64,000 nucleotides of DNA. It comes from Hyphococcus sp. (lineage in GTDB: Bacteria; Pseudomonadota; Alphaproteobacteria; Caulobacterales; Parvularculaceae). The stretch spans positions 301,431-365,430 of the forward strand of contig JAJFGB010000001.1 in NCBI GenBank assembly GCA_021776335.1. Direction: 5' to 3'. Positions within the stretch are counted from its first letter, which is position 1; each line of letters opens with the position of its first letter. The notes beneath the pieces are model-generated. The model had not been told where the DNA came from, made no database searches, and saw only the letters and a program-made list of their open reading frames with translations. The position numbers were made by a program, and so were the translations under genes. This document shows positions 28,623 through 45,246 of this stretch, one piece after another.

Positions 28623-31040
28623 CTAATCACTAGTCACGGCGTCTTCCGGTTTCACATAGCGGTCAAACCATTCGATCATTTCAGCAAGTGTGTGCAGCAC
28701 AGACTCGCGCCCGCGATAACCGTGACTTTCATGGGGCAACATCACAAGCTTTGCGCGGCCGCCATTACCTTTGATTGCCGCAAACATGCGTTCTGATTGC
28801 TGAGGGTGCGTGCCGGAATTATTATCATTAGCGCCATGAGTCATCAGCATCGGCTCGTCAATTTTATGCGCCGCGGTAAACGGGCTGAGGCGGTAATAGC
28901 TTTCCGGCGCTTCCCAATAGGTGCGACGTTCAGATTGAAAACCGAAAGGGGTGAGGGTGCGGTTATAGGCGCCCGACCTTGCGATGCCAGCCCGAAAGAG
29001 ATCACTATTGGCCAGAAGGTGCGCGGTCATAAAGGCGCCGTAACTATGGCCGCCGACGCCAACGCGTTTACCGTCGCCAAACCCGCGCCGCACGGTTTCA
29101 TCAATCGCGGCTTCGGCGGATGCGACGATCTGTTCGATGAACGTGTTATTGACGGTATCGGGGTCGGCGCCGACTACCGGCATCGCTGTGCTGCTCATCA
29201 CCGCATAGCCTTGAGTCAAAAAGAATAATTGGCTGTAACGACTGATGCGCGTGAAGCGATATTTCGACGTGCGCACCTGTCCGGCGGTTGCAGCGTCGCT
29301 ATATTCATATGGGTAAGCCCAGATAACGACCGGCAGTTTGTCGCCCTCTTTATATCCTTTCGGCAGATAAAGCGTCGCCGAAAGGTCTATGCCGTCTTTG
29401 CGTTTATAGGTGATGACCTCGCGGTGAATGCCGGTGAGTTCCGGATGCGGGTCAGGAAAATCCGTCACCATCCGCGCATTGTCGCCTTCATGCAGGCGAT
29501 AATTGCCGGGTGTTTTCGGGTCTTCATAATAGGTGACAAAGGCGCCGTCGCCCGCCGCCAGACCAACAATGCGTTCATAGTTTTCGCCGGAATTACGCCA
29601 TAGCTCAGTTGTTTCAAGGGTTTCAAGATCGAGGCTGCGTAAGAACGGGCGATAGCCATCGGGCGATGCGCCGTCGCCCTTAAGAAAGATATGTCCGTCT
29701 TCAACGCGCGCGACGAATTTACCGGATTTTGTACGCGTTGTCAGCGGCTCGCCCGGGTCCGCATATTCATCGCGAAAATTTCGAAATTCCAGAATCTTTG
29801 GCGTTGCGCCGTCTAAATCGATTAATTGTCGGCGAATCTCACGCGTATCGCGATCATAGTCCGTTACAATCAGCGAACTTGAATCTTGAATGCCATCGAC
29901 CTCCCGGTAGCGATCTTCAAGACGAAAGATCTCGCGCGCTTCGCCGGCAAAGGGCGCGGCAAGCACCATGAGCTTGTCGCGAAATGCCGCCTCTGTTTTC
30001 GGATTGCCGCCGTCAAGCGCTTCCGCCCATAGCAGCAGGTTCGGTTCTGTCGGATGCCATCGGACATTGCGGCGTCCGGTGACGACGCCGTTCACCGGAA
30101 GGTTATCCGCAAGGGGCTGGTTTGCGACAGTCGCAGCAATCTTCCCCGTTGGCGTCCAGATTTCGCTTCTTTGCCCAAAACGGTACCAGGGCACCTGATA
30201 GGAAAAGGGCTTTTCCAGGTTTTTGACAAGGAGATATTGCCCGTCCGGCGATGAAGACGCGGATATATAAAGGCCTGGCTGGCCAATTTTACGTTTTCTG
30301 CTGCCTTTTACATCGACGGTCACGATTTGCGATGTTGCGAGCCATTCAAACATCACTTCATCATGGGGGTCTTTCAGCAAATCCCGATAGGTTCGGGTTT
30401 GTGCTTTCTCGCCGCCAGTCGCGTCAGAAACCGCAGGCCCGCGCGGCGTCAATGACCGGACGGGGCGGGGGCCGCGCTTATCAGGCACAGTAAAAACAAG
30501 CAGTCGCCCATCGGGCAGCCAGCGCGACGCGCGGAAGATCGGGTTGACGCCGTTTCTGATAACGGGCTTTGCTGTCGCTTTTTCAACGTCAAGCACCCAC
30601 AGGCCGACACTGCGTTCGCCCGTCATTGTAAATGAAACATAGCGCCCATCCGCCGACCAGCTGACCTGATCGATGTCGGCGTTTTTGGGTAATGCAATCG
30701 GCGTGAGGGCGTCTGATGCAAGATTTTTGAGAGCAAGTCCGATGGTGCCGCGCGGTTGATGCCGGTCATTGGTCGCTGCATCGAGACGCAACCCGGCGAG
30801 CTTTTCCATCGGCTTTGCAATCTCAGCCACCGGCGGCAGGCTTTCGCGAATACTTAATAGCAAGTTTTGACCGTCAGGGGAGACGCTCACCCGTGGGCTC
30901 GGCGCACGGAGCACAATGTCGGTGATTTCCTGCGGCGGCTCTTTGTAGCCTTCTGCGGAAGCAGGTGCGAAAAGGCCAGCAAGCAATGACAATACTGCAG
31001 TGAGACAAATATTGCCGCCAAATGAACGTATCGATTTCAT
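28623..31040 (-). CDS. S9 prolyl oligopeptidase family peptidase (glutamyl endopeptidase-like)
   Basis: GGHSYGAF nucleophile elbow, ARSGAYNRTLTPFGFQ, DNNSGT and HESHGY triad motifs; signal peptide. Confidence 0.9.
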   Translation of the reverse strand: MKSIRSFGGNICLTAVLSLLAGLFAPASAEGYKEPPQEITDIVLRAPSPRVSVSPDGQNLLLSIRESLPPVAEIAKPMEKLAGLRLDAATNDRHQPRGTIGLALKNLASDALTPIALPKNADIDQVSWSADGRYVSFTMTGERSVGLWVLDVEKATAKPVIRNGVNPIFRASRWLPDGRLLVFTVPDKRGPRPVRSLTPRGPAVSDATGGEKAQTRTYRDLLKDPHDEVMFEWLATSQIVTVDVKGSRKRKIGQPGLYISASSSPDGQYLLVKNLEKPFSYQVPWYRFGQRSEIWTPTGKIAATVANQPLADNLPVNGVVTGRRNVRWHPTEPNLLLWAEALDGGNPKTEAAFRDKLMVLAAPFAGEAREIFRLEDRYREVDGIQDSSSLIVTDYDRDTREIRRQLIDLDGATPKILEFRNFRDEYADPGEPLTTRTKSGKFVARVEDGHIFLKGDGASPDGYRPFLRSLDLETLETTELWRNSGENYERIVGLAAGDGAFVTYYEDPKTPGNYRLHEGDNARMVTDFPDPHPELTGIHREVITYKRKDGIDLSATLYLPKGYKEGDKLPVVIWAYPYEYSDAATAGQVRTSKYRFTRISRYSQLFFLTQGYAVMSSTAMPVVGADPDTVNNTFIEQIVASAEAAIDETVRRGFGDGKRVGVGGHSYGAFMTAHLLANSDLFRAGIARSGAYNRTLTPFGFQSERRTYWEAPESYYRLSPFTAAHKIDEPMLMTHGANDNNSGTHPQQSERMFAAIKGNGGRAKLVMLPHESHGYRGRESVLHTLAEMIEWFDRYVKPEDAVTSD

Positions 31041-31127
31041 TGCGTGAAGCCTTCTGCCTGTTTCAGCTGTTGAAACTATCAACAATATTGTTGTCGATGG
31101 CAAATAGAGCGGTGCGCTGGAACAGAG

Positions 31128-31882: not shown

Positions 31883-32039
31883 ACGCATTATGCAATGGGC
31901 GCCATTGCAATCTGCAACTAAATCCGAGTTGCTTAATAAAGTTTTTACACCATATGCGCTAACTGTTGACGCTAACATATTGAATTATAACAAATTTTCA
32001 ATTTGCAACGCAGGCGGCGTTTAATGGCGCGCAAAATGA
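31883..32039 (+). promoter_or_regulatory. Sigma54-type promoter P1: LuxO-type enhancer pair, IHF-like site, -24/-12
   Basis: ACGCA-TTA-TGCAA 31883-31895; TTGCA-ATC-TGCAA 31905-31917; IHF-like ATTCAATATGTTA (minus strand, 31973-31985); TGGCGCG-CAAA-ATGA 32025-32039. Confidence 0.65.
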
Positions 32040-32071
32040 AACGGTCCTTAGCCAGTGGGTTGAGGAACGTT

Positions 32072-34909
32072 ATGCAACAGACGGTCAAAAGCGACGGCGA
32101 TCAGCAAAGGTCCTCAAGCGCCCAGATGTTGCGCGCAGGCCTGGGCGAGGCGCAGGAAGATCTTGGTCATCTTGCCCGTGTTGCGGCACAAGCACTGTCG
32201 GCGCCAAGCACATTCATAGCGTTGCTCGAAGACGATATTTTGCATTATGGCGCGCAGCACGGTGACGACGATCAAGACAACGATCGTGACAAGAAAATCT
32301 GCCAACGTATCCTTGGCGAGAATGATTTGTTTATCGTTTCAGACGCAACAACAAATACAGAGTTCTCATCCATTCTGGGACTTTCGAAACCGAACACCCG
32401 GTTCATTGCCGGCGCACCCATCGTCGGTGAAGACGGCTGCCGCGTTGGCGCAGTATGCGTTCTCGACACTGTGGTAAGGCCTGATCTAACCCCACAAAAG
32501 CTCAACGTTCTGTATTCCGTCGCCAAGCTTGCAGGGGAAGCGATGAGCAAGCGAAGCCTTAAGCAAAAAGGTGAGACAGCTTTTGCAATTCTGCAAAAAG
32601 CGCAAAAGCTAAGTCGAATTGCCCATTTCGTTTTTGACCCTGTTGGGTTCAAAACCATCAGTATTTCAAAGTCGCTTGGCATTTTTTATGATGGCGACGG
32701 TGAAACCGAGCGCGGCCTTGATTTTGGTGAATTTGTTGATCGCTTGCATCCAGACGATTCTGATCTTGTGCAGCACGCAATCGGAGAGGGCGTTAAGGGC
32801 GGGGCCGCAATCAATATCAAATTTCGTGTTGAATCGCACAAGGGCGCCTATCGAAATATCTGGTTGAATGCTGAGCCGCTTCAACTCGACAATTCGGCAG
32901 CTGCGCCATGGATCGGCATCATGCAGGACGTCACCGATCAGGTTCGAAAAGAACAAGACCTTAAGGAAAATATTGCATTTCGGCGCGCGGCGACCGACAC
33001 GGCGTTGGATTGCGTTATCACAATTGATGCAAGTGGAAAAATCAAGGCGTTCAACCCGGCCGCGGAGCAAATCTTTGGGTATGCAAGGCAAGATGTTGTC
33101 GGCGCTCCCCTGGCAGAAATAATAATCCCTGAAGAACTGCGCGGCGCCCATCTCGCCGGTATCAAGCGGTACCTTGAAACCGGAGAGCATAATGTGCTCG
33201 GCAAGCGCATTGAAGTTGAGGCTATTACAAAGTCCGGCGCCCGTTTGCCAATTGAATTGGCGATCACACCATTCGAGGTGAATGGCGAGAAACATTTTAC
33301 AGCATATCTGAGGGACATATCTGAACGTAAAGCTGCAGCAGTTGAGATCGAGGAATCGGCTGCTTGCCTCAAAACGGCGAAGGAAGAAGCTGAAGCAGCC
33401 AACGCCGCGAAGTCTGATTTCCTCGCGACGATCAGCCACGAAATACGCACGCCGTTAAACGGCATCATAGGCGGCCTCAGTCTCATTAAGGACGAGCTTG
33501 ATCGAACCGATCACCGAAGTCATGCCGAAGTTGCATATAACTCGGCGGAGACGTTACTGGTGTTGATCAATGACATACTAGATTTGTCAAAAATTGAAGC
33601 CGGAAAGCTGGAAATTGAAAACACGAATTTTGATCTTTATGAATGCATCAGAAGTGCGGCTGATCTTTTTAAAGCGAATGCGGATGAAAAAGGGCTTGAG
33701 TTTGCTGTTGAGATTCCGAACGATCTAACCCGATGGCGCGTTGGCGATTCGGGACGGATTCGCCAGGTACTTTTGAATTTTATCTCCAACGCTATCAAGT
33801 TTACCGATGCTGGAGGTGTTGTTCTGTCCGTATCAGAAATCAACAATGAACAAGTCGTGTTGAGCGTTGCCGATACAGGGATCGGCATCCAATCAAAATA
33901 TCAAGACAAGTTATTTACCAGCTTCCAACAGGTCGATGCATCATACAAGCGCCGGTTTTCCGGCAGCGGCCTTGGCCTCGCAATTTCCAGGCAACTTGCG
34001 GAGTTGATGGGCGGTGACATTCGTTTTTCAAGCGTAGAAAGCAAAGGGAGTACCTTTTCCATGACCCTTCCCCTTAAAATAGGCGCCGCTCAGGAAACAC
34101 CATACGCGCAGGAAATAGAGCCCGACCGGTTGAGGGGCAATATTCTCATCGCCGAAGACAGCGCAACCAACGCGCTGGTGGCGCGGGCGCTCCTTCGCTT
34201 GAAAGGCGCAAAAGTCGATCACGTTTCCAACGGCGCTGAAGCTGTGGCGGCCTGCCGCGTGCGGCCTTACGATTTGATTCTCATGGATCTGGCAATGCCG
34301 GAGATGGATGGCTTTGAAGCCACGCGGGAAATTCGCAGCTCCAACACCGCGAACAAGGAGACGCCAATTGTGGCGCTTACGGCCAATGTTTCGGAGGACG
34401 ATCGCAAGGAATGCATGAATGTCGGGATGAATGATCTCGTCGCGAAACCAATTAATCGACGGCAGTTTCTGAATACGGTCGCCGACTGGCTTGGGAATGA
34501 CGAAATCTGTGGGTCAGAAGAGGAGGCGGATTTCGATTCAATTACTGTCTTCGATCCAAACCGATTTGAGACTGAATGGCGTGACCTTCCGCTTTCGGCG
34601 CAGTTTGAAATCATCACGGTCTTTATGGACGAAACGAAAGCCCGACAGATGAAGATTGCGCGCGCGATGCTTAAACAGGACTGGCGCATAGCTGAAAATG
34701 AGGCGCACGCGCTCAAGAGTTCGGCCGGCAATATTGGCGCTGAACGCCTGCATCTGCTGGCCAAACGGATTGAAGCGCATTTGAAAGCAAGTGAACGAGA
34801 CGCTGCCGCGGCGCTCATTCTGCGCGTACCTGGCGTCTGTTCGGATACGATTGACAGTATCGAAAAGCAGCACGCCAGAATTGGCGAGAAGGCAAAGTCA
34901 AATGGGTAA
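32072..34909 (+). CDS. Cytoplasmic hybrid histidine kinase GAF-PAS-PAS-HisKA-HATPase-REC-Hpt
   Basis: GAF (RFIAGAPIV..GAVCVLD), PAS (RLHPDD), FixL-like PAS (FNPAAEQIFGY..AHLAGIKRYLETGE), FLATISHEIRTPLNG, DLILMDLAMPEMDG, Hpt AHALKSSAGNIGA; no TM; GAGGAA RBS before ATG 32072. Confidence 0.93.
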   Translation: MQQTVKSDGDQQRSSSAQMLRAGLGEAQEDLGHLARVAAQALSAPSTFIALLEDDILHYGAQHGDDDQDNDRDKKICQRILGENDLFIVSDATTNTEFSSILGLSKPNTRFIAGAPIVGEDGCRVGAVCVLDTVVRPDLTPQKLNVLYSVAKLAGEAMSKRSLKQKGETAFAILQKAQKLSRIAHFVFDPVGFKTISISKSLGIFYDGDGETERGLDFGEFVDRLHPDDSDLVQHAIGEGVKGGAAINIKFRVESHKGAYRNIWLNAEPLQLDNSAAAPWIGIMQDVTDQVRKEQDLKENIAFRRAATDTALDCVITIDASGKIKAFNPAAEQIFGYARQDVVGAPLAEIIIPEELRGAHLAGIKRYLETGEHNVLGKRIEVEAITKSGARLPIELAITPFEVNGEKHFTAYLRDISERKAAAVEIEESAACLKTAKEEAEAANAAKSDFLATISHEIRTPLNGIIGGLSLIKDELDRTDHRSHAEVAYNSAETLLVLINDILDLSKIEAGKLEIENTNFDLYECIRSAADLFKANADEKGLEFAVEIPNDLTRWRVGDSGRIRQVLLNFISNAIKFTDAGGVVLSVSEINNEQVVLSVADTGIGIQSKYQDKLFTSFQQVDASYKRRFSGSGLGLAISRQLAELMGGDIRFSSVESKGSTFSMTLPLKIGAAQETPYAQEIEPDRLRGNILIAEDSATNALVARALLRLKGAKVDHVSNGAEAVAACRVRPYDLILMDLAMPEMDGFEATREIRSSNTANKETPIVALTANVSEDDRKECMNVGMNDLVAKPINRRQFLNTVADWLGNDEICGSEEEADFDSITVFDPNRFETEWRDLPLSAQFEIITVFMDETKARQMKIARAMLKQDWRIAENEAHALKSSAGNIGAERLHLLAKRIEAHLKASERDAAAALILRVPGVCSDTIDSIEKQHARIGEKAKSNG

Positions 34910-36317
34910 ACCGAAGGCAAAAGTCCTCGTTGTTGAAGACAGCCCGTCACTCGCTCGTACATATACGGCCCAGCTTGAACACAGCGGATATGAAACAAGC
35001 ATCGCTGATACGGGCGCCAAGGCGCGCGCGATTGTCCAGGAGTTTGACTGTGTTCTGCTCGACCTTGGGCTTCCTGACGAAGACGGACTTGACATTTTAA
35101 CGGATTGGAACGCGGCGGAGCGGCCCGTGATCGTGATTACCGGGAATGGATCGATCAACACTGCCGTTGATGCAATGCAGTGCGGCGCCGTCGACTTTCT
35201 CGTCAAGCCTTTCCAGAGTGAACGGCTGATCACAACCGTTGCCAACGCAATTGAGAAAAGTCGCTTAAGCCAAATAGTGAATACATATGAAAGCAAGATC
35301 GACCGAAAATCATTTGGCGGTTTCGTCGGCGACACACTTGAAATGCAGGCGGTTTATCAAACATTGGAAAGCGCTGCGAGCAGCAAAGCGACCGCTTTCA
35401 TCATTGGTGAGAGCGGCGTTGGTAAGGAACTTGCGGCGCGCGCGGTACATGATTACAGCCCCCGTGCGGGTAAGCCATTTGTGGCGCTCAATTGCGGCGC
35501 GATTCCGCGAGATCTGCTTGAGAGCGAGTTATTCGGACATATCAAGGGCGCATTTACAGGCGCTACGTCGGATCGGGAGGGGGCGGCGGCGCGCGCGAAT
35601 GGCGGCACATTGTTTCTGGATGAAATCACCGAGATGGATATCTCGCTGCAACCAAAGCTTCTGCGTTTTCTGCAGCTTGGCAGTTTTCAAAAAGTCGGTG
35701 GCGACAAAACGATCGAAACTGACATTCGAATTGTGGCGGCGACAAATAGAACGCCCCTTGAATGTGTGCGTTTGGGTTTATTGCGAGAGGATCTCTATTA
35801 TCGGTTGAATGTGTTGCCGATTGAGTTGCCGCCTCTCCGGGACCACGCTGGAGATATCGCAAAGATCGCGTCTGAATTCCTGGTCGAATATGCCAATGAA
35901 GAGGGGAAGAATTTCTCGGAGTTCACAAACACGGCAATCGAAGCGCTTCAACAACATGACTGGCCAGGCAATGTTCGGGAACTACAAAATGTCATCAGAC
36001 AAATCGTTGTCCTGAATGATGGCCCTGTCGTGCAGCCGTCCATGGTGATATCGTTGTTAATGGACAAGGTATCGACGGCAGGACGCCTGTTACCAGCAGC
36101 AACGGATATTGAGCCCATAAGCAGCGCATCGGCTGGGTTTTCAAATCGCGAGTTTGAACTGAAACCACTTTGGCAGATCGAGCTTGACGCGATTGACGAC
36201 GCGATAGCGCGTTGTGACGGAAATATTCAAAAAGCCTCCCGATTGTTGGACATCAGTCCATCGACAATCTACCGCAAACGCGAGCGCGCCAGAGGGCGAT
36301 CTTCTGACGTTGCGTGA
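34902..36317 (+). CDS. LuxO-like sigma54-dependent response regulator (REC-AAA+-Fis HTH)
   Basis: LLDLGLPD receiver, ESAASSKA, GESGVGKE, ESELFGHIKGAFTGA, WPGNVRELQN, PLWQIE..AI..CDGNI..LDISPSTIYRK; overlaps the kinase stop codon. Confidence 0.93.
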   Translation: MGKPKAKVLVVEDSPSLARTYTAQLEHSGYETSIADTGAKARAIVQEFDCVLLDLGLPDEDGLDILTDWNAAERPVIVITGNGSINTAVDAMQCGAVDFLVKPFQSERLITTVANAIEKSRLSQIVNTYESKIDRKSFGGFVGDTLEMQAVYQTLESAASSKATAFIIGESGVGKELAARAVHDYSPRAGKPFVALNCGAIPRDLLESELFGHIKGAFTGATSDREGAAARANGGTLFLDEITEMDISLQPKLLRFLQLGSFQKVGGDKTIETDIRIVAATNRTPLECVRLGLLREDLYYRLNVLPIELPPLRDHAGDIAKIASEFLVEYANEEGKNFSEFTNTAIEALQQHDWPGNVRELQNVIRQIVVLNDGPVVQPSMVISLLMDKVSTAGRLLPAATDIEPISSASAGFSNREFELKPLWQIELDAIDDAIARCDGNIQKASRLLDISPSTIYRKRERARGRSSDVA

Positions 36318-36412: not shown

Positions 36413-36545
36413 CTGCAAATTGCATCGGTTGCGTTGCATATTGCTTCGCCTGCCATGGCTGCAACGGCTGTTATGCAATCGCTGCAACCATAACCGATTG
36501 ATCTAATTGTATATATTTCCGTTCGCGTAATGGCTCGGTCTTTGA
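36413..36545 (+). promoter_or_regulatory. Sigma54-type promoter P2 upstream of sqdB
   Basis: CTGCA-AAT-TGCAT 36413-36425; TTGCA-TAT-TGCTT 36434-36446; IHF-like GATCAATCGGTTA (minus strand, 36491-36503); TGGCTCG-GTCT-TTGA 36531-36545. Confidence 0.7.
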
Positions 36546-36611
36546 GTGTCTTTGCGCATTGGAAGCGCCGCCATCGGATGCTGCGCACAGTTTGGAACAG
36601 GAGTATCATTC

Positions 36612-37823
36612 GTGGAAAAGAAAATTGTTATCCTCGGCGGAGATGGATTTTGCGGCTGGCCTACAGCGCTCCATCTTTCAGCTAAAGACTATAACGTCAC
36701 CATTGTTGACAATCTTTCGAGGCGCTTGATTGACGTTGAGCTCGGCGCTTCAAGCTTGACGCCGATCAAGTCGACCGAACGGCGGCTCGAGGCCTGGACG
36801 CGCATTACCGGCCGGCAGATTAACTTCGAGAAAATCGACGCTGCAAAAGACTATGAAGCGCTGAAGTCGCTGCTCAATCGTGTACGTCCCGATACAGTCA
36901 TTCATTTCGCAGAGCAGCGCGCAGCGCCCTATTCGATGAAAAGCGCCACCCACAAGACCTACACTGTAGATAATAATATCGGTGCGACACACAACTTGCT
37001 GTCAATTCTCTCTGAACTCGAACTGGATACTCATGTCGTTCATCTGGGGACCATGGGTGTTTATGGTTATGATGATGCTGGTCTCGAGATTCCGGAAGGG
37101 TATTTACCAGTTCAGATAAAAACTGAAACCGGCGAATTTATTTCCCGAGAAGTGCTTTACCCGACAGATCCCGGCAGCGTCTATCATATGACGAAGTCCA
37201 TGGATCAGCTTCTTTTTCAGTTTTACGCCAAGAATGACGGCATTCGCGTCACAGATCTTCACCAGGGCATCGTTTGGGGGACGCAGACCGAAGAAACACG
37301 GCTGTCGGAATCACTGATTAATCGATTTGACTATGACGGCGATTACGGCACGGTCCTGAACCGTTTTTTGATGCAAGCTGCAGTCGGTCATCCGCTTACC
37401 GTACACGGCACCGGAGGCCAAACACGTGCCTTCATCCATATACAAGACACCGTTCGGTGTATTGCGCTTGCGGTGGAAAACCCGCCGGCGCGCGGCGCGC
37501 GCGTAAAAATTCTCAATCAAATAACCGAATGCCATCGCGTTCGCGATCTGGCGAGCATTGTTTCGAAGGTGACAGGTGCGAAGGTCGCGTTTGTCGATAA
37601 TCCACGTAAAGAAGCCGATGAGAATGATCTGCGCGTTTCAAATGCCACCTTCATCGACCTCGGACTGAAACCAACCACCCTTGAAAATGGATTGCTTGCG
37701 GAAACCATGGATATCGCCGTGAAGTACGCGCTGCGCCACGATCCCGCAATGATCCCTTGCGTTTCCACCTGGACCTCAACGCAGCGCCCTGGCGAAGTTA
37801 AAGAACGCCAAGCGATCGCTTAA
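36612..37823 (+). CDS. sqdB: UDP-sulfoquinovose synthase
   Basis: GGDGFCGWPTALHLS, HFAEQRAAPYSMKS, LGTMGVYG, YHMTKSMD, RFDYDGDYGTVLNRF, HGTGGQTRAFIHI, all diagnostic of alphaproteobacterial SqdB; AGGAG RBS before GTG 36612. Confidence 0.95.
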   Translation: MEKKIVILGGDGFCGWPTALHLSAKDYNVTIVDNLSRRLIDVELGASSLTPIKSTERRLEAWTRITGRQINFEKIDAAKDYEALKSLLNRVRPDTVIHFAEQRAAPYSMKSATHKTYTVDNNIGATHNLLSILSELELDTHVVHLGTMGVYGYDDAGLEIPEGYLPVQIKTETGEFISREVLYPTDPGSVYHMTKSMDQLLFQFYAKNDGIRVTDLHQGIVWGTQTEETRLSESLINRFDYDGDYGTVLNRFLMQAAVGHPLTVHGTGGQTRAFIHIQDTVRCIALAVENPPARGARVKILNQITECHRVRDLASIVSKVTGAKVAFVDNPRKEADENDLRVSNATFIDLGLKPTTLENGLLAETMDIAVKYALRHDPAMIPCVSTWTSTQRPGEVKERQAIA

Positions 37824-39569: not shown

Positions 39570-42325
39570 CCGATGCCGTTGCAACGGAAACAAGGTCTCA
39601 AAATGAATTTCTTTGCGTTGACAGCGCACCGAAACAATATGCCTCTTTAATCCCGATATGGCGTGCGCCGGCGGCGTGTGCGCTATTTCTGGTTATTGGT
39701 TTCGCAGCGATATTTATCGTCAACCAGATCCCATTCCTGAATGCCGCTTTCCCTGATGATGATTTTATCTTCTCGCCATATACAGGCAGCCATTCCATAC
39801 CCATCCGGCTGTTTATTGTCACCTTCAGTGCATCGTTTTGCTGCTTCTGCAATGGCGACCTCAAAAACAAAACCCTGCTGTTTGCCGATATCGTGTTCAC
39901 CTATGCGCTCTACTGCGCGGTGTTCGACCTCATCAACATTATTGTTTATGAGACGTTGCAGGTTCGATATCAGCTAAGCTTCATTGAGATCGTTAGCGGA
40001 TTACTCGGTTTTTGGGTTTTCTCATTGAAACTCCTCCGGCGCGGGCGCATGCCGCCAAAGATTGAAGTCCCTTACAAGCCACAGCGAACATTTTCAACGA
40101 TCGTTCGGCTCGTGGGCGGCGCTGTCGCGGCCGGATTATTTTCGTTTTGGATCGCATCGCTTGATTTGGCGATTGTTCAGGACCTTCGAAATTTTGCACT
40201 GCTGGGCGGGATTGGTCCTGGCGTATTTCTCTTTTTGCCAGTGTTGTTTCTAATCTGGTTTGTTTTAGCGACCTATGACCGGCTGACCATGAAAGTGGGC
40301 GACTTTACGCCTCCGCTGACATTTGTTGTTCCTGCCCACAACGAAGAATACATCATCGCTGATACAATCTTCGCGATGGATGAGGCTGCCTGTAATTACA
40401 ACGGCAATGTGATCATTCTCATCATGAATAACAATTCCGACGACCGAACAAGTGAGGTCGCCGAGGCTGCGCTGGCAAAATGCAAGGCGGCGACAGGAAA
40501 AGTGATCGACGTCCCGAAGCCAGGAAAATCGAATGCGCTAAACGCAGGTCTTGCTGCAGCCGAAACCGAATTTTTCGTGCGCGTTGACGCCGATACATTG
40601 ATTGCGCCGGATTCAATCCACCGCGCCATGCGATATTTCTATGACCCTAAAGTCGGCGTGGTCGGCGGATTGCCTATACCGCCAGGCGGGGCGCTTTTCG
40701 ACAATGCGCGATTCCTCGAGGTGATTGTAAAACACGGTTATTACTCGGTTGCGCTCGGTGCGATCAATGGCGTTGTTGGCGTGCCGGGCATGTTAGCGCT
40801 CTATCGCACCGAGCTCCCAAGGCAGCTTGGTGGATTTGTTGAAGGCATGAACGGTGAGGACACCGACATGTCGTTGCGCATCGGCGAGATGGGATATGAG
40901 GTCGTCGTTGATCCAAAGGTGACCTACATCTCCGAAGTGCCTGCGAGTTACAAGCATATGCGTGAACAACGCATGCGCTGGTTCCGCTCAATCTATCATA
41001 TCTCAAGCAGGAATGGGGATTATCTCGACCGGTCATGGCTGACGATCAGGGGAAAGATTATTTTACCCTATATGCTCGTCAATTCAGCTCGCCGCGCCAT
41101 GCTCACCCCGCTCGTTATGTTTGGCGCCATCGAATATGTGACCAGTTTTAATTCAGCGAACACACTGGAGTGGCAAGCGATCTTAGCGGTGCTCATCGGG
41201 GCGCCAGCAATTGTTGCGGTTTTTGCTTCGCTGATAAACGGCTATCCGAAAGGCATTCTGGCGCTTCCAGATTATTTGGTGTTTCGCGCGATCCGCGCTT
41301 ACCTGACGTTAGAATCGCTTCTCAGCATTATCATTGCGCCGGACCCGGAAACCGTTGCGCGCGCGCAAGTAGTGCGACGTAAAAGGAAGGTATGGATTGC
41401 TCGCGCCCGGGCGGGGTTCGCCGGCGCTGTGCTTTCTGTTGCCGCTATCTTTAACGCGAACGCGAACGATCCAGGCCTTTTAGTTGAGGCGACAATGGGC
41501 GCTCAACGGCAGGGCCTGATCGTCGAGGAAGATGACGTCAAGGCGAGCGGCCTTGCCGTTGGCGTCTTTGCTGACGCATCACTGATTTATGACCAAAGGC
41601 TCAGAAAAAAGGACTTCGTGAAGGTTAAAAGTAACCTGAGGAAGGATATTTATCCGGATCGCTCTGGGTTAGACACGATACACTATCGTGGTGAGCTGCA
41701 ATATCGGCGACAATTGAGTAAAAAATGCAGTTGCTGGTTACAAGCGACAATGCGCTACGACCAAAAAAAACGCGATGGTGAGTTTCTCTTTCGACGGGAG
41801 GCGGCGCAAGTTAAGCTGTGGCGCCGGCACAACAAACAACATAACGGGTTCATACAGCTGGGTGCGAGCAACCTTGACTACAACGACGCACGCCTCGCAG
41901 GGTTTGATCAGCGAAGATACAGAATAGATGTTGGCCATCAATGGCGGCCGGCAGACTCACGGCTTCGATTGAATGGGGTGATCTTTGCGGAACACTCCGA
42001 TGCTGACGCGGCTCGGTTTGATTTTCAATCTCTTGGCGCACAGTTACGCGCAGAGAGGCAATTTGCTAGCTCAGCGACGAAAATGCATGTTGCGCTGTTT
42101 TGGCGTGAACGTCGCTATGAAGGTGTATTCAGTCGAGATTTTCCAATGTCGCGGAGCGATAGGGCGCTAAGAGCGTCGGTCGGCCTTTCACATCCAGTCA
42201 GGAAAAGACTTACCGTGACGGGGGCATTGGGCTGGGAACAAAATCGCTCCAATATTCCCATTCGGCGGCATCAGGGCTTAACGTTTCGGATCACGCTTAG
42301 CGCCAAATTGCCGATCCTGGATTGA
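39566..42325 (+). CDS. Processive GT2 polysaccharide synthase fused to an outer-membrane beta-barrel
   Basis: About six N-terminal TMs; VPAHNEE, KSNALNAG, DADT, GEDTD and QRMRW (D,D,D,QxxRW); further TMs; internal signal-peptide-like segment; C-terminal region of about 290 aa with amphipathic beta-strand pattern. ATGA overlap with the upstream gene. Confidence 0.85.
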   Translation: MTDAVATETRSQNEFLCVDSAPKQYASLIPIWRAPAACALFLVIGFAAIFIVNQIPFLNAAFPDDDFIFSPYTGSHSIPIRLFIVTFSASFCCFCNGDLKNKTLLFADIVFTYALYCAVFDLINIIVYETLQVRYQLSFIEIVSGLLGFWVFSLKLLRRGRMPPKIEVPYKPQRTFSTIVRLVGGAVAAGLFSFWIASLDLAIVQDLRNFALLGGIGPGVFLFLPVLFLIWFVLATYDRLTMKVGDFTPPLTFVVPAHNEEYIIADTIFAMDEAACNYNGNVIILIMNNNSDDRTSEVAEAALAKCKAATGKVIDVPKPGKSNALNAGLAAAETEFFVRVDADTLIAPDSIHRAMRYFYDPKVGVVGGLPIPPGGALFDNARFLEVIVKHGYYSVALGAINGVVGVPGMLALYRTELPRQLGGFVEGMNGEDTDMSLRIGEMGYEVVVDPKVTYISEVPASYKHMREQRMRWFRSIYHISSRNGDYLDRSWLTIRGKIILPYMLVNSARRAMLTPLVMFGAIEYVTSFNSANTLEWQAILAVLIGAPAIVAVFASLINGYPKGILALPDYLVFRAIRAYLTLESLLSIIIAPDPETVARAQVVRRKRKVWIARARAGFAGAVLSVAAIFNANANDPGLLVEATMGAQRQGLIVEEDDVKASGLAVGVFADASLIYDQRLRKKDFVKVKSNLRKDIYPDRSGLDTIHYRGELQYRRQLSKKCSCWLQATMRYDQKKRDGEFLFRREAAQVKLWRRHNKQHNGFIQLGASNLDYNDARLAGFDQRRYRIDVGHQWRPADSRLRLNGVIFAEHSDADAARFDFQSLGAQLRAERQFASSATKMHVALFWRERRYEGVFSRDFPMSRSDRALRASVGLSHPVRKRLTVTGALGWEQNRSNIPIRRHQGLTFRITLSAKLPILD

Positions 42326-42336
42326 TTAACGCAATG

Positions 42337-42486
42337 CCTCAAATTGCGCGCATTCTCTCACATTGCTCTTGCATATTGCGGCAGTTAGCCGGCCATCAAA
42401 ACTCGTGAACCGAACACTGCGCCAATATATTGTTTTTGCTTACTCTTTTGCGACCGCGGGGCTGCGCAGGATGGCCTGGCTTTTGA
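42337..42486 (+). promoter_or_regulatory. Sigma54-type promoter P3 upstream of GT2-cysH
   Basis: CCTCA-AAT-TGCGC 42337-42349; TTGCA-TAT-TGCGG 42369-42381 (11-mer TTGCATATTGC identical to P2); IHF-like AAACAATATATTG (minus strand, 42423-42435); TGGCCTG-GCTT-TTGA 42472-42486. Confidence 0.65.
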
Positions 42487-42514
42487 AGCTCTTGAGGGGA
42501 GAGAAAGGTCGAAC

Positions 42515-43447
42515 ATGCCAGATAAAATGCAAAAACGAAAAGGCGGCCGTTTTGGTTTCCGCAATATACGACCGCGGGCGCGATCATGCTCAGCATACGA
42601 CGTCAGTGTGATCATTCCTTATCATAACGCATCGCGGACAATCCGCCGCGCGGTCGCCTCCATTGTTTTTCAACGTCACGTCAGATGCGAGATTGTTATT
42701 ATCAATGACGGCTCGTCTCTTGAAGAGACCGCGAAGCTGTCGTCGCTTCGTGGAAAGCGGAATATTCGCGTTGTTGATGTGCTTCATCGCGGCGCTGCCG
42801 CTGCACGCAATTTGGGCGCAGAGCTCACCCGGTCCGCCGTCATCGCTTTCCTTGATGCGGATGATGAGATTCCCGCACGCGCGTTTACCAGAAAGATCAA
42901 GAAATTAAACAGCAATCCGGATATCGGCCTCGTTTTTGGACGAACGCGCATTTGCGTTAATACACAAAAACCGACTGATGAAATTACGCCATTTCAGTCT
43001 TCGCTTACACTTGAGGAAGTGCTCGGTTCATTTCCCGTGCTGACAGCGTCAAATATGCTTGTTCGCCGAGCGGCGTTTGAGGATATCGGAGGCTTCGACG
43101 AAGGATTACGTGACGCCAGCGATCAAGAGTGGACTGCTCGGCTTTGCTCGCATGAAAAATGGGACGCTGCCGGCGTTAAAAGCGTGACGGTCCGGAAATT
43201 TGTCGGCCGTTCGTCGCTCTGGGCGAATCCTGATGCGATGGAACAGGCGTGGCGCCAGGTTCTCGCTTCACATATGGCAAAGGGAAACCAACTGGAGGAC
43301 GGGGAAGCGGCGCGAATTTCGGACCTGTTTTATCAGCGCCTCGCCAGTTACGCCGGGCGCTATGTCAATGTCCATAACAAATCGCGCTTCTTTGAACTGA
43401 TCCAAATCTGGAGGGGGCAGCGTGATGCAATTGCATACAGCTCATAG
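42515..43447 (+). CDS. Soluble GT2 glycosyltransferase
   Basis: VSVIIPYHNA, IVIINDGSS, GAAAARNLG, IAFLDADD, GGFDEGL..SD. Confidence 0.9.
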   Translation: MPDKMQKRKGGRFGFRNIRPRARSCSAYDVSVIIPYHNASRTIRRAVASIVFQRHVRCEIVIINDGSSLEETAKLSSLRGKRNIRVVDVLHRGAAAARNLGAELTRSAVIAFLDADDEIPARAFTRKIKKLNSNPDIGLVFGRTRICVNTQKPTDEITPFQSSLTLEEVLGSFPVLTASNMLVRRAAFEDIGGFDEGLRDASDQEWTARLCSHEKWDAAGVKSVTVRKFVGRSSLWANPDAMEQAWRQVLASHMAKGNQLEDGEAARISDLFYQRLASYAGRYVNVHNKSRFFELIQIWRGQRDAIAYSS

Positions 43448-44144
43448 TCCGTCGGGTTTTCATGCGGCGCAACCGATTGTTGATTTGCTGAATGTTGAGC
43501 ACGAAAATGTGCGCGCAGAATGCATTCTCCGAAATGCCCTTGATCTTTTCAGCGGCGAAATCGTTCTGGTGTCATCTTTCGGGGCCGATGCGGCTGTGCT
43601 CCTTCATATGCTCGCAGAATTTGACAAGGATATACCAGTCATTTTCCTGGATACCGGACGTCACTTTGAAAAAACACTTCACTACCGCCAGACCCTGGCG
43701 CACCAGCTCGGCCTTCGCAATGTTCGATCGTCTCTCCCGAATCGACTTGCACTGGCCGAGCTGGACCCGGACGGCAGCCTGCATCAGCTGGACCCAGACG
43801 CGTGTTGCGCCATTCGAAAAAAGGCCGTCTTGAAAAGCGCATTATCGCCATTCAGCGCATGGATATCGGGCCGAAAACGTTACCAGACGGCGGCCCGGCA
43901 AAATATCCGCATATTCGAGTGCGACAATGAAATGCGTATCAAACTAAGCCCTCTTGCTGATTGGTCAGAGCAAGATATTGAGCACTACTATGAAGCGCAC
44001 AAATTGCCGCGACATCCGCTATGGGCGGAAGGCTATCGGTCGATCGGATGCGCGCCATGCACGTCGCCAACCATTCAGGGAGAAGATGCACGCGATGGCC
44101 GCTGGAGCGCCCGCGGCAAAACTGAATGCGGAATTCATTTGTGA
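43425..44144 (+). CDS. cysH: APS/PAPS reductase, Fe-S (APS-reductase) type
   Basis: SSFGADAAVLLHM, FLDTGRHF, CCAIRK, SIGCAPCT, RDGRW, KTECGIH; overlaps the GT2 stop. Confidence 0.93.
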   Translation: MQLHTAHSPSGFHAAQPIVDLLNVEHENVRAECILRNALDLFSGEIVLVSSFGADAAVLLHMLAEFDKDIPVIFLDTGRHFEKTLHYRQTLAHQLGLRNVRSSLPNRLALAELDPDGSLHQLDPDACCAIRKKAVLKSALSPFSAWISGRKRYQTAARQNIRIFECDNEMRIKLSPLADWSEQDIEHYYEAHKLPRHPLWAEGYRSIGCAPCTSPTIQGEDARDGRWSARGKTECGIHL

Positions 44145-44211
44145 AACTGCTCGATATTGGCAATCTGCTGGTCAATTGATTTGATCACACTGTTGGCGCT
44201 TTACGCCGATC

Positions 44212-45246
44212 TCACTCAAACATTTCGCGCAAATTCACCGAAGATTTTTCGCCGACGCTGTCGAAATTTTCGGTGAGCCAGGTGTCGGCGATATCGCGGC
44301 CTTTGTTTTTTAACTCGGTCAGGAAAGCCCAATCCGTGCGGAATTTGCTGGCGATATCAATATCGGCGATCGCTCTGTCGGAACGGATTGAATGGATGCG
44401 GATATCGCGCAGGCGGTCGCGATATTCATCTTTGAGCCAACCATCATCGAGCAGTTTGTGGACAAAACTGATCGCGCGCAATTCGCGCATCAAGGACGAG
44501 TTAAAGCTGATTTCGTTGACACGGTTCATAATTTCCGGCGCCGTTGTCGGCACCTCTTCGCGTTCAATGGGGTTTACATGAACAATAACAACATCGGATG
44601 CTTCGGCTTCGTAGAAGAACGGAAACAAGACCGGATTGCCCATATAGCCGCCATCCCAGAAATGTTCACCGTCAACTTCGACAGCCTTGAATAAAAACGG
44701 CAGGCAGGCGGAGGCGCAAACAACATCGGTAGAGATGTCCTTGCAATTGAACACATGGACTTTGCCGCTTTTGACATTGGTCGCAGCAATGAAAAGTCTT
44801 GTGGTCGTGCAGTGCCGTAAGGCGTCAAAATCGATGCAGTCATCGAGAATATCGCGCAAAGGATTAATGTCGAACGGATTGAACTGATAGGGCGAAAGCG
44901 CGCGCGTCATGACGTCGAAGGCCTGAAAGGAAAGGGCGCTGATCATATCGGCAGCGCCAGGGATCATGGGAAAGAAATCGCTGCGCACAGGGCTATAAAG
45001 TTTGCCCGCATCGCTGACCCGGCGCCACAAAAGCTCCAGGGTTTCGCGGGCGCCGGTTTTGCCGCCGTTGAAAAGTCCGTAAGCCACAGCCGTTGCATTC
45101 AGGGCGCCGGCACTGCACCCGGAAATCGCATCAATTTCGATGCGCGGATCTTCAAGCAGCCGGTCGGCAACGCCCCAGGTGACAGCGCCATGGGAACCAC
45201 CGCCCTGAAAAGCGAGATTGATTTTTTTGGTGACAGTCTCCACCAT
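44212..45246 (-). CDS. Patatin-like phospholipase/esterase
   Basis: FQGGGSHG, SGCSAG (GxSxG), WDGGYMGNP; TAATG coupling to bdhA. Confidence 0.92.
   Translation of the reverse strand: MVETVTKKINLAFQGGGSHGAVTWGVADRLLEDPRIEIDAISGCSAGALNATAVAYGLFNGGKTGARETLELLWRRVSDAGKLYSPVRSDFFPMIPGAADMISALSFQAFDVMTRALSPYQFNPFDINPLRDILDDCIDFDALRHCTTTRLFIAATNVKSGKVHVFNCKDISTDVVCASACLPFLFKAVEVDGEHFWDGGYMGNPVLFPFFYEAEASDVVIVHVNPIEREEVPTTAPEIMNRVNEISFNSSLMRELRAISFVHKLLDDGWLKDEYRDRLRDIRIHSIRSDRAIADIDIASKFRTDWAFLTELKNKGRDIADTWLTENFDSVGEKSSVNLREMFE

Follow-up and report, generated by a model that had tools for sequence, protein, structure and literature searches.

In plants, sulfoquinovose is made in the plastid by a route that leads from adenosine 5'-phosphosulfate (APS) reductase through sulfite to the uridine diphosphate (UDP)-sulfoquinovose synthase SQD1; the sulfite comes from the shared assimilatory pool, and the plant APS reductase (APR) carries a thioredoxin-like domain. 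The bacterial assimilatory CysH proteins of the [4Fe-4S] type, for which the structures 7lhr and 2goy stand here, have the PF01507 fold and the motifs SSFGxD, CC...CxxC and ECG(I/L)H, and a mechanism by way of S-sulfocysteine with thioredoxin is established for the CysH family. The known sulfoquinovosyl-transferases are SqdX/SQD2, which belong to glycosyltransferase family 4 (GT4), and SqdD, which belongs to GT8, that is, to CAZy families other than GT2. Within the mechanism of UDP-sulfoquinovose synthase, sulfite adds to a UDP-glucose-5,6-ene intermediate, and the means by which sulfite is transferred to SQD1 or Agl3 in vivo has been described as unknown (PMC4388408), while the in vivo source of the sulfite of SqdB/SQD1 is treated as unknown or is assumed (PMC4388408; PMC13436972). 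Our literature searches found no paper on sqdB with cysH, nor on a CysH::SqdB fusion. Here we describe an apparently mobile cassette of seven genes in a 64,000-nucleotide (nt) stretch, referred to below as the window, of the Hyphococcus sp. contig JAJFGB010000001.1 (assembly GCA_021776335.1), in which a cysH gene closes a set of genes that includes sqdB; locus coordinates are window positions. We propose that this cysH is a second APS-reductase paralogue that probably provides sulfite for the SqdB of the cassette rather than for cysteine synthesis.

Taken by itself, the window CysH closely resembles the assimilatory enzymes, sharing their fold (PF01507, E 5.8e-43, 147.4 bits, cut-off 22.5) and all of the motifs named above, and scoring like the housekeeping copy of the same genome. 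It passes the cut-offs of NF002537 (253.7 bits, cut-off 154) and TIGR00434 (177.2 bits, cut-off 165.1), and its closest solved relatives, 7lhr (E 7.7e-37) and 2goy, have the same cysteines. An earlier reading of the window from its letters only (the sequence-only reading) had held that this cysH keeps the CC and CxxC ligands of the Fe-S cluster, and it does: Cys127-Cys128 (in DACCAIRK) and Cys209 and Cys212 (in GCAPCT) align with the ligands of 7lhr, and the catalytic Cys235 lies within the C-terminal ECGIHL (residues 234-239). By family the enzyme is an ordinary Fe-S sulfonucleotide reductase, and its apparent dedication to a sugar pathway is the new part. What distinguishes it from the bacterial assimilatory enzymes is its setting, since the cassette copy lies outside a cys operon, has no sulfite reductase beside it, stands behind a predicted LuxO-type, sigma-54-like promoter as the last gene of a polysaccharide cassette and belongs to a clade of its own. 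The comparison with the plant plastid route is of a similar kind: the two chemical steps are identical, whereas the cassette has a separate, dedicated paralogue, and its product is probably a polysaccharide and not the lipid sulfoquinovosyl diacylglycerol (SQDG).

The first line of evidence for such dedication is the gene complement of the host, whose assembly is 99.5% complete. The genome holds three PF01507 genes: cysD, which adjoins a cysN-cysC fusion on C10, a housekeeping cysH on C2, and the window cysH. The housekeeping gene (C2:52583-53326) is the last of an operon (C2:48176-53326) in the order cysG (569 bits, cut-off 400), a glutathione S-transferase (GST)-like gene, a NIR_SIR sulfite/nitrite-reductase hemoprotein gene, DUF934 and cysH, and its product is 50% identical to the window CysH. 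The sequence-only reading had suggested a check for another cysH, one with a housekeeping role and set in a cys operon; with its discovery the idea that the window copy is the only cysH of the genome is rejected. The GST-like gene that follows cysG in this operon is kept in two sister genomes (G103 and G056) and is missing in another (G100). The genes cysD and cysNC, the sulfite reductase gene and cysG are all present in single copy, and no homologue of CysD, CysN/C, CysI or CysG was found anywhere in the 64 kb of the window, so that the lack of cysDN, cysIJ and cysG neighbours reported earlier for the window cysH extends to the whole stretch. A second, resident sqdB is found at C3:510487-511659, beside rmlA/D/B. 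Because only the cysH and sqdB steps are duplicated, with cysD, cysNC, the reductase gene and cysG remaining single, the cassette duplicates only the steps from APS to sulfite and from sulfite to UDP-sulfoquinovose. The genome could supply both APS and 3'-phosphoadenosine 5'-phosphosulfate (PAPS), CysN being fused to the APS kinase CysC.

The partner enzyme can be assigned on similar grounds. The cassette SqdB is, to judge from its alignment, a true relative of SQD1, matching the SQD1 structure 1qrr over its full length with 330.8 bits and with the catalytic motifs LGTMG (Thr) and YHMTK (YHxxK) aligned; it scores 330 bits on NF041015, below the equivalog cut-off of 575. It is 80-87% identical to its cassette orthologues as against 64% to the resident SqdB.

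The second line of evidence is phylogenetic. A search with the window CysH returned a discrete top group (P0123-P0130, 59-63% identity, 306-332 bits), below which scores fall to about 270 bits, where the ordinary alphaproteobacterial CysH proteins start. In maximum-likelihood trees the window protein and P0123-P0131 form a clade (support 98/94) that is separate from the clade of cys-operon CysH proteins of the genus (support 100/100). All ten cassette-clade proteins keep SSFGxD, CCxxRK, GCxPCT and ECGIH, and each of them terminates exactly at ECGIHL. In nine of the ten, a further cysteine precedes the catalytic one by five residues, within CGK(T/V)EC, at a place where the window protein has an arginine; this residue is not present in the cys-operon CysH proteins nor in those adjacent to sqdB elsewhere in the genus, and it could be a resolving cysteine that frees sulfite without thioredoxin.

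Synteny follows the same clade. The gene closes the sqdB-X-synthase genes in L170, L171/L173/L174, L172, L175, L176, L187 and L188, where X is a conserved gene of the cassette, and an intact cassette-clade cysH occupies this position on eight contigs with a synthase gene besides that of the window, even where the gene for a small GT2 protein upstream of it decays. The full order of kinase, activator, sqdB, X, synthase, GT2 and cysH recurs in L170, L171/L173/L174 and L172, and in L188 the C-terminus of the GT2 is followed by cysH. In L176 and L187 the order is sqdB-X-synthase-cysH with no small GT2, and cysH starts 2-3 nt after the stop codon of the synthase gene, a layout in which it is predicted to join the sqdB-X-synthase transcription unit. 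L175 (1366-1763) is collinear with L172 (8824-10014) except for a clean in-frame deletion of 797 bp, which strips the GT2 of its whole catalytic domain, DxD motif included (residues about 53-318), and leaves an open reading frame (ORF) of 72 amino acids (aa) that overlaps an intact cysH behind the conserved promoter. Selection appears to retain cysH as the last gene of the cassette, even in the face of decay in the gene upstream.

The third line of evidence comes from outside the cassette. A cysH gene is present in 49 of 49 genomes of sister species in the genus, and in two or more copies in about 22 of them; 17 of the 49 carry a copy no more than about 400 nt away from the resident sqdB, with the two genes divergent in most cases. 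In the three cases checked (G103, locus L181; G100, L182; G056, L183) the other cysH copy belongs to a cysG-...-cysH operon, and the sqdB side has the order rmlB-rmlD-rmlA, cysH, sqdB, a Thioredoxin_7 protein gene and an aminotransferase gene. This resident pair is like the cassette in having a second cysH by sqdB while the cys operon keeps its own copy, but it differs in its CysH, which falls in a third clade (support 100/99, including the metagenomic L095), in its type of SqdB, at 63-67% identity, and in the absence of a synthase and of a LuxO-type regulator.

In metagenomes the association is far more frequent than expected. A scan with SqdB, which is highly conserved, gave 80 sqdB loci among the matches listed, with 0.82 Mb of flanking DNA; true cassette orthologues are not among these matches, and cysH is present in 7 of the 80 loci, against about 0.2-0.4 expected by chance (Poisson p < 3e-7). 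Two of the seven are single-chain CysH::SqdB fusions as defined by Pfam, L121:1194-3344 (716 aa) and L140:4532-6649 (705 aa), with the PF01507 domain N-terminal and an SqdB-type epimerase domain C-terminal. A search with a fusion as the query yielded more than 120 clusters among the matches listed (P0242-P0361), all with both domains and of about 670-770 aa, and these include Nocardioides and Isoptericola isolates. The fusions match the cassette in their two predicted activities and in their Fe-S-type CysH motifs, but unite in one polypeptide what the cassette encodes in two genes in separate transcription units; all of the sqdB-linked CysH proteins inspected, fusions included, keep CC...CxxC...ECG. 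Since the CysH domains of the fusions form a clade distant from the cassette CysH, the fusions originated independently of the cassette pairing, and since the sqdB-linked CysH cases occupy at least five separate positions in the tree, the association of sqdB with cysH arose repeatedly. When two genes both fuse and come to be neighbours repeatedly and independently, comparative genomics classically takes this as the mark of a direct functional link, and we would read it so here. As to the surroundings of these loci, the L140 fusion is part of a polysaccharide locus, its neighbours including genes for a priming transferase (Bac_transf), a flippase (Polysacc_synt) and a NusG-like protein. The L121 fusion adjoins a sulfotransferase gene. 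In L093:3565-7970 another cysH-sqdB pair is flanked by a Sulfotransfer_3 sulfotransferase and an FkbM-type methyltransferase, so that the glycan made there may carry sulfonate together with sulfate or methyl groups.

The cassette itself (Table 1) consists of seven genes in the same orientation, and its predicted promoters would place cysH under the control that the other genes appear to share. The predicted sigma-54-like core TGGCCTGGCTTTTGAA lies 28 nt 5' of the start of the small GT2 gene, which bears out the earlier description of a GT2-cysH unit with its own copy of the promoter motif, and matching cores lie 5' of the kinase gene (32025-32040) and of sqdB (36531-36546). The core is kept as TGGC-N7-TTGAA 5' of the GT2 position in L170, L171, L172 and L175, all of which also have TTGCA-N3-TGCAA-like boxes there, with perfect TTGCAACTTGCAA boxes at the equivalent position in L172 and L175. 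The core pattern is weak when taken alone, with 9 matches in the window against 3.3 expected, and the promoter is therefore predicted from the position and the conservation of the core and not from the pattern count. A scan of 42300-44400 found no sigma-70-like promoter and no convincing terminator. The ATG of cysH has GGAGG 10 nt upstream and, counted from this ATG, cysH overlaps the GT2 reading frame by 23 nt, so that the overlap that had been noted between the two genes is real. The start of sqdB deserves a comment: the GTG of its longest ORF coincides with the last base of the sigma-54-like core, and translation probably begins instead at the GTG at 36612, which is preceded by AGGAG, gives a protein of 403 aa (orthologues, 402-408 aa) and fits the start of the SQD1 alignment.

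Table 1. Features of the cassette in window coordinates, with the identity of the cassette orthologues to the window protein
Feature	Position	Strand	Basis or remark	Identity of cassette orthologues
Hybrid kinase	about 32003-34909	+	first cassette gene	
LuxO/NtrC-type sigma-54 activator	34791..36317	+	profile matches	70-79%
Cassette SqdB, UDP-sulfoquinovose synthase	36612..37823 (longest ORF from 36546)	+	full-length match to 1qrr	80-87%
X, 574 aa	37845..39569	+	no Pfam/family match; kept in all cassettes	45-53%
GT2 synthase, 919 aa	39566..42325	+	sole glycosyltransferase common to every cassette	59-76%
Activator-box region, TTGC-rich repeats resembling TTGCA-N3-TGCAA	42325..42400	+	sequence reading; upstream part of the predicted GT2-cysH promoter	
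Sigma-54-like core TGGCCTGGCTTTTGAA, -24 GG, -12 GA	42472..42487	+	predicted promoter of the GT2-cysH unit	
Small GT2, soluble non-processive GT-A fold, 310 aa	42515..43447	+	PF00535, AlphaFold2, Foldseek	40-53%, lowest of all
CysH, [4Fe-4S]-type APS reductase paralogue, 239 aa from ATG	43425..44144 (alternative GTG 43422)	+	PF01507, NF002537	59-63%

The borders of the cassette can be placed with the help of the genus. A patatin-like gene (44212-45246, minus strand), 67 nt 3' of cysH, belongs to the core gene set of the genus, occurring in all 8 genomes tested at 73-76% identity, which makes cysH the right end of an acquired region; the left end may lie upstream of the kinase gene, where an 826-aa gene (28623-31103, minus strand) is accessory, with 42% identity in 2 of 8 genomes. 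The window is free of tRNA genes, which might have marked an island border. The neighbourhoods of related cassettes differ, and in some of them there is a gene for an integrase or transposase; the cassette-type SqdB is found in no other genome of the genus, all of the SqdB proteins there being 63-67% identical.

From gene content, motifs, paralogy, clade structure, synteny and the independent recurrence of sqdB with cysH, fusions included, we infer a route together with its enzyme activities, reductant, regulatory logic, flux and polymer, as well as the part that the small GT2 plays. Sulfate would be activated by the single CysD/CysNC of the genome, and the cassette CysH would reduce APS, or possibly PAPS, with thioredoxin as the reductant and by way of an S-sulfocysteine on Cys235. 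The cassette SqdB would then join the freed sulfite to the UDP-glucose-5,6-ene intermediate and so form UDP-sulfoquinovose, most of which the 919-aa synthase would use to make a sulfonated exopolysaccharide. With a LuxO-type, sigma-54-like promoter in front of it, sulfite production could be switched on together with the polymer genes and would escape both control by cysteine and prompt reduction of the sulfite to sulfide; with or without the small GT2 gene, cysH would be expressed with the polymer genes and not with the cys operon, where sulfite reductase would consume the sulfite. Of the earlier interpretation of the locus, the dedicated supply of sulfite is strengthened by the separate clade, the recurring linkage and the second cysH, whereas its other half, the small GT2 as a sulfoquinovosyl-transferase, has lost ground for the reasons given below.

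Several observations weigh against a dedicated sulfite supply and should be set beside those in its favour. No cysH stands beside the resident C3 sqdB of this very genome, and the distant three-gene cassettes L090 and L134, which have sqdB, an X-like gene and a synthase gene at 48-49% identity, have neither a small GT2 gene nor, within 10 kb, a cysH, so a dedicated cysH would seem to be helpful and not obligatory for SqdB. Conversely, in L179/L180 a cassette-clade cysH is found with no sqdB, synthase, activator or GT2 gene nearby, which points either to decay of a cassette or to another purpose of the kinase-cysH pair. (In L179:6762-10717 a cassette-type hybrid kinase gene, whose product is 60% identical to that of the window, is followed after about 400 nt by cysH.) The APS for the cassette CysH still appears to depend on the single housekeeping CysD/CysNC. 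The assignment of CysH to the [4Fe-4S] APS-reductase type carries a preference for APS over PAPS that is predicted from the Fe-S motif alone, and the protein does not reach the cut-off of TIGR02055 (APS_reductase, thioredoxin dependent; 167.2 bits, cut-off 235.3); the housekeeping CysH scores alike on this model (167.5 bits), which does not separate the two copies. Lastly, the role of the small GT2 within the scheme is a guess from fold and dispensability.

A closer form of coupling would have CysH and SqdB act as a complex, the S-sulfocysteine of the CysH tail, or sulfite formed in situ, being delivered to the active site of SqdB. We regard this as a tentative possibility. The natural fusions place an ECG(L/V)(H/N) tail immediately before the linker to the SqdB domain, the cassette-clade proteins all end at ECGIHL, and SQD1 and Agl3 are only weakly active when given free sulfite in vitro (PMC4388408). 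In the window, however, sqdB and cysH are 5 kb apart and in different transcription units, fusion and adjacency can both be explained by co-expression alone, and an AlphaFold2 model of one CysH::SqdB fusion was poor (mean predicted local distance difference test score, pLDDT, 58.6; predicted template modelling score, pTM, 0.44) and gave no interface. It is likewise conceivable, though doubtful, that bacterial UDP-sulfoquinovose synthases in general obtain their sulfur from a partner APS reductase by direct handover and not as free sulfite from the assimilatory pool.

Whether sulfite is handed over or released, the proposed supply to SqdB leaves the question of which enzyme uses UDP-sulfoquinovose, and here the small GT2 has to be considered. 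It matches PF00535 (E 4.4e-24, 85.7 bits), and GT2-type Pfam and NCBIfam models are the only ones that it matches, no GT4- or GT8-type domain being found in it. Its DxD motif, D114-A-D116-D117, is invariant in 34 homologues. The sequence-only reading was correct in calling the protein soluble: it has no transmembrane segment (maximum 19-residue Kyte-Doolittle mean 1.06), and the suggestion that it is a membrane-anchored polyprenyl-phosphate sugar synthase is rejected on that count. Its AlphaFold2 model (pLDDT 88, pTM 0.86) has WrtF, TarS/TarP, RmlT, SpsA and K4CP as its best Foldseek matches (E 1e-18 to 1e-14). With the fucosyltransferase WrtF, TarS/TarP, RmlT and SpsA, which work on glycans or polymers, it shares the GT-A fold, the DxD motif, solubility and, as predicted, the addition of single sugars, but it is only 13-22% identical to them. 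The protein is rare, two proteins of more than 50% identity occurring among 5.8 billion clustered proteins and the rest at 39% or less; no orthologue was found in the GTDB species representatives, whose generic GT2 genes reach at most 33% and never stand beside sqdB or cysH, nor in 151 genomes of the same family, where the best match is 35% identical.

Its distribution is more informative than its fold. Co-inheritance with sqdB fails for the small GT2, which is missing in L176, L187, L090 and L134 and deleted in L175, and holds for the synthase. The small GT2 therefore cannot be an obligatory sulfoquinovosyl-transferase and, since sqdB persists in cassettes that have no small GT2 gene or only a remnant of it, another enzyme must consume UDP-sulfoquinovose. 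We regard the small GT2 as an optional accessory enzyme, apparently dispensable for the core pathway, whose most likely role is that of a decorator of the polymer, attaching a side residue. One other reading is that it primes the chain on a lipid or protein acceptor, to be extended by the processive synthase, much as WbbE primes for WbbF in the synthase-dependent Salmonella O:54 antigen. A non-processive GT-A fold enzyme, soluble or peripheral and encoded directly 3' of a processive synthase, would suit this role, but in the natural cassettes that lack it the synthase would need another primer or none, and its best structural matches include the polymer decorators TarS, TarP and RmlT; priming is in our view unlikely.

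The reading put forward originally, in which the small GT2 transfers sulfoquinovose from UDP-sulfoquinovose and stands for a new sulfoquinovose-transferring family, draws on the translational coupling of the small GT2 to cysH behind a common promoter in the window, L170, L171 and L172, and on its place outside the known sulfoquinovosyl-transferase families. This reading is now unlikely. In L176 and L187, where the gene is absent, and in L175, where its catalytic domain is deleted, sqdB (where the contig reaches it), the synthase gene and cysH are intact; the distant cassettes also do without it; it is the least conserved of the cassette genes; and if it were the sole consumer of UDP-sulfoquinovose, its loss should bring with it the loss of sqdB and cysH. 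The alternative that the sequence-only reading had itself allowed, namely the synthase, is the better candidate, and the large synthase is more likely to be the main user of UDP-sulfoquinovose and may represent a new sulfoquinovose-transferring family. If either GT2 protein of the cassette uses UDP-sulfoquinovose, it would have that donor in common with SqdX/SQD2 and SqdD. There remains the view that the cassette cysH, as a redundant paralogue for assimilation, merely hitch-hikes on the island with no tie to SqdB, which its ordinary appearance, its resemblance to the housekeeping copy in identity and family scores and the clade member without sqdB in L179 would allow, but which is highly improbable in the face of a gene kept intact in the same position despite decay of the GT2, of independent sqdB-cysH pairs and fusions in unrelated lineages, and of a LuxO-type promoter in place of a cys-operon context.

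Taken with its relatives, the locus offers genetic evidence for a private, pathway-specific APS reductase, in that bacteria have time and again given sqdB a duplicate cysH of its own, a cysH neighbour or a CysH domain in the same protein. Thanks to the pairing, two or three recombinant proteins would be enough for a direct test of where the sulfur of sulfoquinovose comes from. If direct handover should prove true, the cassette CysH, the sqdB-adjacent CysH of the genus and the fusions would be three evolutionary solutions to one channelling need, and the long-open question of the source of sulfite for SQD1/SqdB in vivo would be answered. The search for an enzyme that polymerises sulfoquinovose moves from the small GT2 to the large synthase, and the findings add to the case for sulfoquinovose as a constituent of bacterial surface polysaccharides and not of the lipid SQDG alone.

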